Shown here piece after piece: positions 33,001-36,000 of a stretch of DNA of 64,000 bases. A program made the position numbers. Numbering within the stretch: position 1 is the stretch's first letter; each line of letters opens with the position of its first letter. Source of the stretch: Escherichia coli (GTDB lineage: Bacteria; Pseudomonadota; Gammaproteobacteria; Enterobacterales; Enterobacteriaceae); assembly GCF_024298765.1 (NCBI RefSeq), contig NZ_CP101210.1; one strand, 5' to 3'.

Positions 33001-36000
33001 AAATCGATCTCTGACCAACGAGCAAAACGCAGCTCACTGGACCGAATAAAGATCAGCAAAGAGAGTTCTGTCGCCCATCGGGTTAGCGGCCTACCAGTAT
33101 AGCTATCTATTTTTGTAAGCAACTCAGGGATGCGCTTTAATTCAAGCGCGGGACGATGTTGTCGATTACAGGAAGCAACCGCCCCAGCCATCTCTTGTGC
33201 CGGGTTATAATCAATTAACCCACTTTGCACTGCATAGCGCATGATGGCTGTAGTGCGCTGCTGAAGACGAGCGGCCACTTCAAGACGTCCAGACATTTCT
33301 ACGGCCTTAATGGGTGCTAATAAATCTCGAGTTTTTAACTCAGCGATATTACGTTCACCAAGCGCTGCAAAAAGATTATCTTCCAGACTTTTTAGCACAC
33401 GATGGGCGTGATCTTCAGACCACTTTTTATTGGTGCCATGCCACTCAATCGCGACTTCTTTAAAGGTTCGTGCTTTACTCTGTTCAACCTTATCATTTTT
33501 CTTTTTGTCTCCCGGATCGACGCCATTCGCAAGCAGCTTACGCGCCTCGTCACGACGTACTCTGGCATCCGCTAGTGTGATTTCAGGATAAACCCCAAGT
33601 GCCAGCATTTTTTGCTTTCCCTCATAACGGTACTGCAAACGCCAGTACTTAGAACCATTTGGATGGACAAGCAGATGCATACCGCCACCATCAGTCAGCT
33701 TATATTGCTTATCCGTTGGCTTGGCTGCTCTGACTTTGATATCTGTTAATGCCATGCGTATTCCCTCCCTGTTGGTACAAGCATTATCGAACCGGAAATA
33801 CCATCATCTGTACCAACATATGTTGGTAGATGTACGTTGATATCGGTTGACCTTGAGAGAGTTAATATAGCGGGAAAGGTAGATAAACACTGGATTTCAG
33901 GCATAAAAAAAGACCTCAGTTGAGGTCTATTTACATACTTTTGGTGCCGAAGGCCGGACTCGAACCGGCACGTATTTCTACGGTTGATTTTGAATCAACT
34001 GCGTCTACCGATTTCGCCACTTCGGCACTGAAGAGGTATGCGGAAAACGTTGTGGATTATACCTGTCGCACGCCACCATGCAAGCGCCAGCTTGCTCGCA
34101 CCTCGCTAAGTGCTGAAATTTTCAGCATTGCATACAGCGATGTGTAACCTTTGTCACACTCCAGGCACCCCGCCCTGCCATGCTCTACACTTCCCAGACA
34201 ACACCAGAGAAGGACCAAAAAATGTCGATGATAAAAAGCTATGCCGCAAAAGAAGCGGGCGGCGAACTGGAAGTTTATGAGTACGATCCCGGTGAGCTGA
34301 AGCCACAAGATGTTGAAGTGCAGGTGGATTACTGCGGGATTTGTCATTCCGATCTGTCGATGATCGATAACGAATGGGGATTTTCACAATATCCACTGGT
34401 TGCCGGGCATGAGGTGATTGGTCGCGTGGTGGCGCTCGGGAGTGCCGCACAGGATAAAGGTTTGCAGGTCGGTCAGCGTGTCGGGATTGGCTGGACGGCA
34501 CGCAGCTGCGGGCATTGCGATGCCTGTATTAGCGGTAATCAGATCAACTGCGAGCAAGGTGCGGTGCCGACGATTATGAATCGCGGTGGCTTTGCCGAGA
34601 AGTTGCGTGCGGACTGGCAATGGGTGATTCCACTGCCAGAAAATATCGACATTGAATCTGCCGGACCGCTGTTGTGCGGCGGTATCACGGTCTTTAAACC
34701 GCTGTTGATGCACCATATCACTGCCACCAGCCGCGTTGGGGTAATTGGTATTGGCGGGCTGGGGCATATCGCTATAAAACTTCTGCACGCAATGGGATGC
34801 GAGGTGACAGCCTTTAGTTCTAATCCAGCGAAAGAGCAAGAAGTGCTGGCGATGGGTGCCGATAAAGTGGTGAATAGCCGCGATCCACAGGCACTGAAAG
34901 CACTGGCGGGGCAGTTTGATCTCATTATCAACACCGTCAACGTCAGCCTCGACTGGCAGCCTTATTTTGAGGCGCTGACGTATGGCGGTAATTTCCATAC
35001 GGTCGGTGCAGTTCTCACGCCCTTGCCGGTTCCGGCCTTTACGCTGATTGCGGGCGACCGCAGCGTCTCTGGCTCTGCTACTGGCACGCCTTATGAGTTG
35101 CGTAAGCTGATGCGCTTTGCCGCCCGCAGCAAGGTTGCGCCGACCACCGAACTGTTCCCGATGTCGAAAATTAACGACGCCATCCAGCATGTGCGGGATG
35201 GTAAGGCGCGTTATCGCGTGGTTCTGAAAGCCGACTTCTGATCCCTTTGCCGGGTGCCTGTCGCCCGGCACTTAAATCTCTTTGGAAGGCGTCTCGCAAT
35301 CTGCTGAATTTAGCGGTGAAGAGTGCGCAGCCGTTGCCTATACTCCAGGCAGGAAACTGGAGGAAATCTCATGAGCGAACCCCTGTTAATTGCCCGCACG
35401 CCGGACACAGAACTTTTTTTACTGCCGGGAATGGCTAACCGTCACGGGCTGATTACTGGCGCAACGGGGACGGGTAAAACCGTTACGCTGCAAAAACTGG
35501 CAGAGTCTCTATCTGAAATCGGCGTGCCGGTGTTTATGGCCGATGTGAAAGGTGATTTAACGGGAGTAGCGGAGGAAGGTACTTCTTCGGAAAAACTGCT
35601 CGCAAGGCTTAAAAATATCGGCGTAAATGACTGGCAACCTCATGCTAATCCGGTGGTGGTGTGGGATATCTTTGGCGAGAAAGGCCATCCGGTGCGGGCG
35701 ACGGTTTCGGATCTTGGGCCGCTGTTGCTGGCACGACTGTTGAATCTCAACGATGTGCAATCTGGCGTGCTGAATATCATTTTCCGCATTGCTGACGATC
35801 AGGGATTGTTGCTGCTCGACTTTAAAGATTTGCGGGCGATTACCCAGTACATCGGCGATAACGCCAAATCCTTCCAGAATCAGTACGGAAATATCAGTAG
35901 CGCATCGGTTGGTGCCATCCAGCGCGGATTACTGTCGCTGGAACAGCAAGGCGCAGCACACTTCTTTGGTGAGCCGATGCTGGATATCAAAGACTGGATG

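Follow-up and report, generated by a model that had tools for sequence, protein, structure and literature searches.

The window, the 64-kb stretch of Escherichia coli DNA analyzed here, contains a tRNA gene followed by the two core genes ahr and yjgR, which are separated by a short spacer. A tRNA-Leu with the anticodon CAA, presumably leuX, is located on the minus strand at positions 33942 to 34026. It was identified by ARAGORN, by the Rfam tRNA model with 59.4 bits, and by the tRNA-Leu annotation in matching genomes, and it was the sole match in an Rfam search of positions 33700 to 36000. After another 195 bp, the gene ahr (yjgB) follows on the plus strand at positions 34222 to 35241 and encodes an NADPH-dependent aldehyde reductase of 339 amino acid residues. 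This assignment was based on the RefSeq annotation of a match with 100% identity and on Pfam, which matched the product to ADH_N and ADH_zinc_N. Domain content, near identity to the Ahr protein of K-12 with two amino acid differences, and the RefSeq name all agree with a zinc-dependent aldehyde reductase of the Ahr/YjgB type. The downstream gene yjgR (35371 to 36873, plus strand) encodes a HerA-like P-loop ATPase of 500 residues according to RefSeq, with a full-length HerA_C domain (PF05872, residues 5 to 500, E = 1e-253).

Direct reading and the listing of the open reading frames placed the stop codon TGA of ahr at positions 35239 to 35241 and the start codon ATG of yjgR at 35371 to 35373. 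The 129 bp between them (35242 to 35370, plus strand), which are nearly identical in other strains, represent the “empty” allele of a slot that is filled by the idn genes elsewhere. The original prediction, which had placed ahr and yjgR next to each other with a gap of about 130 bp at positions 35242 to 35370, was accurate in this respect. It had also located the slot beside a tRNA hotspot. The tRNA-Leu(CAA) at 33942 to 34026 lies 195 bp before ahr, and this tRNA integration hotspot is no more than 1.3 kb away from the slot. An open reading frame of the size of an integrase gene (32490 to 33755, minus strand) and a genomic island are located on that side of the tRNA gene that faces away from ahr.

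The island at positions 1 to 33900 contains genes for a fimbrial usher, a GTPase and a restriction endonuclease plus IS elements, as indicated by the annotation of the best matches. These matches (95% coverage, 99.9% identity) came from the strains 2-1, 13TMH22, EC02, CPww7, and CUVM3, and none of the complete E. coli genomes of the collection searched contained the island of the window in an intact form. In strain 2014C-3338, the ahr-yjgR region was 100% identical to that of the window, the identity began at position 33892, and there were 5 mismatches over 14 kb; the island beyond leuX differed from positions 1 to 33900 of the window and contained BREX in 2014C-3338.

The region of ahr and yjgR (34222 to 36873) is unusually diverse in E. 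coli, with a difference of 3 to 6% of the nucleotides between strains, nearly all of them synonymous. Compared to K-12, there were 46 nucleotide and 2 amino acid differences in Ahr and 80 nucleotide and 6 amino acid differences in YjgR, while lptG and lptF (37034 to 39216) differed from K-12 by 1.6% only. The ahr and yjgR alleles have a mosaic structure, and a sorting according to the idn state was considered and rejected.

The spacer and the upstream region of yjgR

The spacer contains a GC-rich hairpin at positions 35248 to 35270 on the plus strand, 7 nt after the stop codon of ahr, which was found by folding and by a terminator scan. Its arms UGCCGGGUG (35248 to 35256) and CGCCCGGCA (35262 to 35270) form a stem of 9 bp that encloses a loop of 5 nt. 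The 49-nt segment with the hairpin folded with −17.1 kcal/mol and a z-score of −1.7, the fold z-scores being modest in general (about −1.7 to −1.8), and the hairpin was the sole terminator-like site reported by the scan of positions 35100 to 35500. A GC-rich stem-loop as expected for a Rho-independent (intrinsic) terminator is present here directly downstream of the ahr stop codon, and the terminator-like hairpin that had been proposed for this gap does exist, although with a weak run of T residues on its 3′ side (CTTAAATCTCTTT) and a tail, CUUAAAUCUCUUU, that would give a poor U-run. In E. albertii, the hairpin is kept at the equivalent place, and in Citrobacter werkmanii a 9-bp hairpin of another sequence still forms just after the stop codon of ahr. 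Judged from the sequence, the hairpin most likely ends the transcription of ahr, and yjgR is probably transcribed on its own from the upstream region of about 100 bp within the spacer.

The last 39 bp of the spacer (35332 to 35370, plus strand) are the leader of yjgR common to all alleles, as revealed by matches to the idn interval of K-12 and by a multi-species alignment. The core that begins with GTTGCCTATACTCCAGGCAGG, about 39 bp upstream of the ATG of yjgR, was conserved, independent of the content of the slot, in Escherichia, Citrobacter, E. cloacae, and Leclercia and was diverged in Enterobacter sp. Ag1 in this alignment. A promoter scan of the spacer returned zero matches to the sigma-70 consensus. 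The leader contains the sequence TATACT at 35339 to 35344, which is a candidate −10 element only, and the Shine-Dalgarno sequence GGAGG at 35359 to 35363. An inverted repeat composed of CTCCAG (35343 to 35348) and CTGGAG (35357 to 35362) overlaps the Shine-Dalgarno sequence. This repeat (35343 to 35362) might occlude the ribosome-binding site of yjgR, but its fold energy was not significant (z-score −0.8), and E. cloacae and Leclercia have a changed 3′ arm.

The idn slot in K-12 and in the E. coli population

Strain C600, which represents K-12 here, has the genes ahr, idnK on the minus strand, idnD, idnO, idnT, idnR, and yjgR in this order. This agrees with the predicted location of idnK-idnDOTR between ahr and yjgR in K-12. 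The stop codon of idnK is located 3 nt from that of ahr, 77 bp separate idnR from yjgR, and the interval between ahr and yjgR comprises 5,126 bp with idn in C600 versus 129 bp in the window. The genes idnK-idnDOTR form the GntII/L-idonate locus of K-12 (b4264 to b4268), which was reportedly the subject of work by Bausch and coworkers in 1998. Descriptions of the K-12 locus are also available in PMC3251573 and PMC4052901.

Searches of the 64-kb window with the K-12 genes by tblastn and blastn found no idn gene, only distant matches at the level of paralogues. IdnD was 33% identical to the product of ahr by tblastn, which is such a paralogue-level match. A paralogue of IdnO from the SDR family (51168 to 51860, 27% identity) and a LacI-type regulator as paralogue of IdnR (57971 to 58864, 21% identity) also occur in the window, and neither is an idn gene. 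When the idn interval of K-12 was compared to the window by blastn, the match was limited to positions 35332 to 35370. The empty allele and that of K-12 are co-linear up to the stop codon of ahr and again from 39 bp before the ATG of yjgR. Between these shared ends, about 90 bp that include the hairpin (35242 to 35331, plus strand) belong to the empty allele, as indicated by alignment with both K-12 junctions, blastn and the multi-species alignment, versus about 5,087 bp that belong to K-12. The difference had been predicted to be a clean presence/absence polymorphism. The polymorphism is not fully clean, since positions 35242 to 35331 have, apart from a short and ambiguous motif, no counterpart in the strains with idn.

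Neither an IS element nor a repeat scar was found at the ahr-yjgR junction of the window. When target-site duplications or repeats were looked for at the junctions, only the motif TCyCTTTG recurred: at positions 35242 and 35279 in the empty spacer, once at the right junction of K-12, and also at the right junction of Citrobacter sp. FP75. Being so short and ambiguous, the motif does not allow a mechanism to be defined.

A total of 5,426 complete E. coli genomes were compared. The ahr-yjgR junction was aligned in one contiguous place, indicating an empty slot, in 3,212 of these genomes (59%), and 2,039 (about 38%) contained at least 80% of the idn cluster. In about 175 genomes, the slot was in another state, interrupted by an IS element, partial or otherwise different. 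The empty slot is the majority state in E. coli and K-12 represents a minority form. Empty slots occurred in backgrounds such as O157:H7 Z866, O111:H8, ATCC 8739, and several APEC isolates, while idn was carried by C600, S17-1, J53, NEBExpress, O19:H7 730V1, and the APEC isolate MS1737. The strains 143, O111:H8 1056-1, and 3036 exhibited the same spacing of 129 bp with 1 to 4 nucleotide differences to the spacer of the window, and the three idn-carrying strains examined all had one junction geometry.

Two trivial or recent origins of the empty slot have to be considered in the light of these numbers. That an artefact of the assembly or of the window joined ahr to yjgR is refuted by thousands of genomes, finished independently of each other, in which the match is contiguous. 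A recent deletion of idn that is specific for this strain or lineage, driven for instance by the activity of the neighboring leuX island, would be in agreement with the position of the slot within 1.3 kb of the integration hotspot and with the existence of a separate deletion of the 3′ part of ahr in strain AHM8C212RI. The same junction, identical in each base, is present, however, in 3,212 genomes, the strains 143, O111:H8 1056-1, and 3036 included, and in E. albertii, and a scar of an IS element or repeat is absent. A junction that is common to thousands of genomes and to E. albertii excludes a recent strain-specific event, and this explanation was refuted to the point of near certainty.

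Absence of idn from the slot does not mean that the cluster has moved. In the approximately 2,990 cluster-free genomes, the K-12 interval was matched only over the 39 bp before yjgR, which indicates that idn is missing from these genomes and not located at another place. A query with the idn interval matched at 5,042 places, distributed over 5,026 genomes, which leaves at most 16 extra places, and the arrangement that would have contradicted the original prediction, ahr adjacent to yjgR with idn elsewhere, was not upheld at the population level. A chimeric query composed of the ahr-yjgR region of the window and the reverse-complemented idnD-idnO of K-12 was also used. Among the carriers of the best-matching ahr-yjgR allele, 60 of 60 genomes gave a single place, and idnD-idnO was missing from the record that carried ahr-yjgR, a result that speaks only for the genomes sharing this allele. 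Judged from the population, the strain of the window would be devoid of idn in its entire genome. With such a gene content, the strain is predicted to be unable to grow on L-idonate or 5-ketogluconate via GntII, and the use of gluconate via GntI should be unaffected.

Two further sequences related to ahr were observed in addition. In AHM8C212RI (locus L003, 7746 to 8079), a deletion comprises the 3′ portion of ahr together with approximately 50 bp at the start of the empty spacer, so that an ahr pseudogene lies beside yjgR; this allele is derived from the empty allele. The 120-kb E. coli plasmid NZ_CP172870.1 (locus L089, 8919 to 9398) contains a fragment of about 400 bp (399 bp) with 93% identity to ahr, annotated as a partial zinc-binding dehydrogenase (pseudogene) among sugar-acid and ABC transporter genes, and no idn genes were located near this fragment on the plasmid.

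Content of the slot in other genera and age of the alleles

A scan of species-representative genomes yielded eight usable enteric loci among the matches listed, most of the others being distant Betaproteobacteria; the eight did not include Salmonella, E. fergusonii, or a cryptic Escherichia clade. The slot was empty in E. albertii NBRC 107761, with an almost identical spacer of 129 bp, and in Citrobacter werkmanii, with a homologous spacer of 136 bp. In Citrobacter sp. FP75, this slot was occupied by idnK-idnDOTR. One gene on the minus strand, encoding a protein of 548 residues with the domains Dak1 and Dak2, filled the slot of Enterobacter cloacae, Enterobacter sp. Ag1, and Leclercia adecarboxylata, and in two Yersinia species neither ahr nor idn was located beside yjgR. 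The gene for the dihydroxyacetone kinase (Dak1 plus Dak2) is the third allele of the slot and is located at positions 7217 to 8863 on the minus strand of locus L010, with equivalent positions in the loci L011 and L012. The empty and the idn allele each occur in more than one genus. An empty spacer in E. albertii and C. werkmanii, idn in FP75, and the kinase gene in Enterobacter and Leclercia mean that the ahr-yjgR slot is an old, multi-allelic site for accessory genes in the Enterobacteriaceae.

Taken as a whole, the data are best explained when the window carries the empty allele of this old, multi-allelic slot, which is bordered by the core genes ahr and yjgR and adjoins the leuX hotspot, and we consider this to be very probable. 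A recent loss of idn in the strain of the window is excluded. Its empty spacer would have been inherited, or acquired via homologous recombination of the flanking ahr and yjgR. This spacer is conserved across genera, with the hairpin just after ahr and the upstream region of yjgR both appearing to be in working condition. If the empty state is the older one, idn would have been inserted directly after the stop codon of ahr and would have replaced about 90 bp.

Whether the empty arrangement did come first, with idn arriving by insertion, is not settled, and there is only a slight preference for this direction. Four observations were counted in its favor. The idn cluster has a GC content of 47.4% versus 54 to 56% in the flanking ahr and yjgR. 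Copies of idn are 99.0 to 99.6% identical between strains with a difference of 4 to 6% in the flanks. The empty spacer contains an intact terminator-like hairpin conserved in three species, and its part proximal to yjgR shows scattered matches to the spacer of Enterobacter. Finally, only 3 nt separate the stop codons of ahr and idnK in K-12. With regard to the second of these observations, the conservation of the empty spacer equals that of idn, so that low diversity cannot separate the two alleles. Moreover, the Idn proteins of Citrobacter sp. FP75 are 80 to 96% identical to those of K-12 versus 92 to 94% for the flanking proteins, a divergence near that of the flanks, so that the occupied allele is also old.

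Alternatively, idn may be ancestral and the empty allele the product of a single old deletion, which then spread through recombination of the flanks, both inside one species and from one species to another. FP75 contains idn in exactly the same slot with proteins about as diverged as those of the flanks, K-12 and FP75 have a homologous right-hand idnR-yjgR junction, and all empty E. coli genomes have one type of spacer, which fits a single event. Salmonella Typhimurium possesses idnD (STM4484), and the absence from Typhi is called a loss by the authors of PMC6138749. Conversely, the approximately 90 bp that are absent from the idn allele, with a well-formed hairpin kept in three species, would not arise from a plain deletion; the GC content of idn is below that of the flanks; and a different gene occupies the slot of Enterobacter and Leclercia. 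An ancestral idn has a serious but lesser chance of being correct than the insertion of idn into an older empty slot.

A more far-reaching explanation would be that the slot is a long-lived trans-species polymorphism with at least three alleles (empty, idn, and the dihydroxyacetone kinase gene), kept by balancing or niche-dependent selection on the use of sugar acids in the gut. The unusually high, almost purely synonymous diversity of ahr and yjgR would be the linked footprint of this old polymorphism and not only recombination noise around leuX. We regard this as rather unlikely.

Relation to known idn systems

A difference in the presence of idn between ahr and yjgR is ordinary, and a variable idn content has already been documented. 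Pangenome analyses class the idn genes as accessory (PMC8545132, PMC10269509), and idnK, idnD, idnO, idnT, and idnR occur as accessory genes in 83% of the pks-positive versus about 31% of the pks-negative genomes (PMC8545132). Association studies list k-mers and GO terms linked to idn (PMC10269509, PMC4216125). The ST131 strains JJ1886 and S250 do not contain idnK (PMC5369007), and Salmonella Typhi is devoid of idnDOTK while Typhimurium has idnD as STM4484 (PMC6138749). The idonate trait has also been connected with the fitness of Salmonella in the gut (PMC6138749) and associated statistically with some STEC and ExPEC groups (PMC4216125, PMC8545132). A non-homologous but analogous idonate-like operon is present on some APEC plasmids (PMC3251573) and would be invisible to a DNA search.

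The finding has little significance beyond the description of the strain and serves as a reminder that K-12 represents the minority state at the ahr-yjgR site. It is of mild interest that different metabolic cargo resides in one slot across enteric genera, and that the empty and the idn allele each occur in more than one genus.

Compared to the GntII locus of K-12, the window has the same chromosomal slot, the same flanking genes ahr and yjgR, and the last 39 bp before yjgR in common; it contains none of the five genes and instead the 129-bp spacer, about 90 bp of which have no counterpart in K-12. The slot of Enterobacter and Leclercia shares with the window the flanking ahr and yjgR and the conserved core upstream of yjgR, and differs by its cargo, the minus-strand gene for the dihydroxyacetone kinase of 548 residues that is absent from the window. 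The reported idn-negative lineages of E. coli and Salmonella display the same gene-content polymorphism as the window, treated there as accessory metabolism. These papers, in their accessible parts, report the presence or absence of genes without a description of the junction, whereas the junction itself, the 90 bp specific to the empty allele, and the conservation of the spacer across genera are described here.
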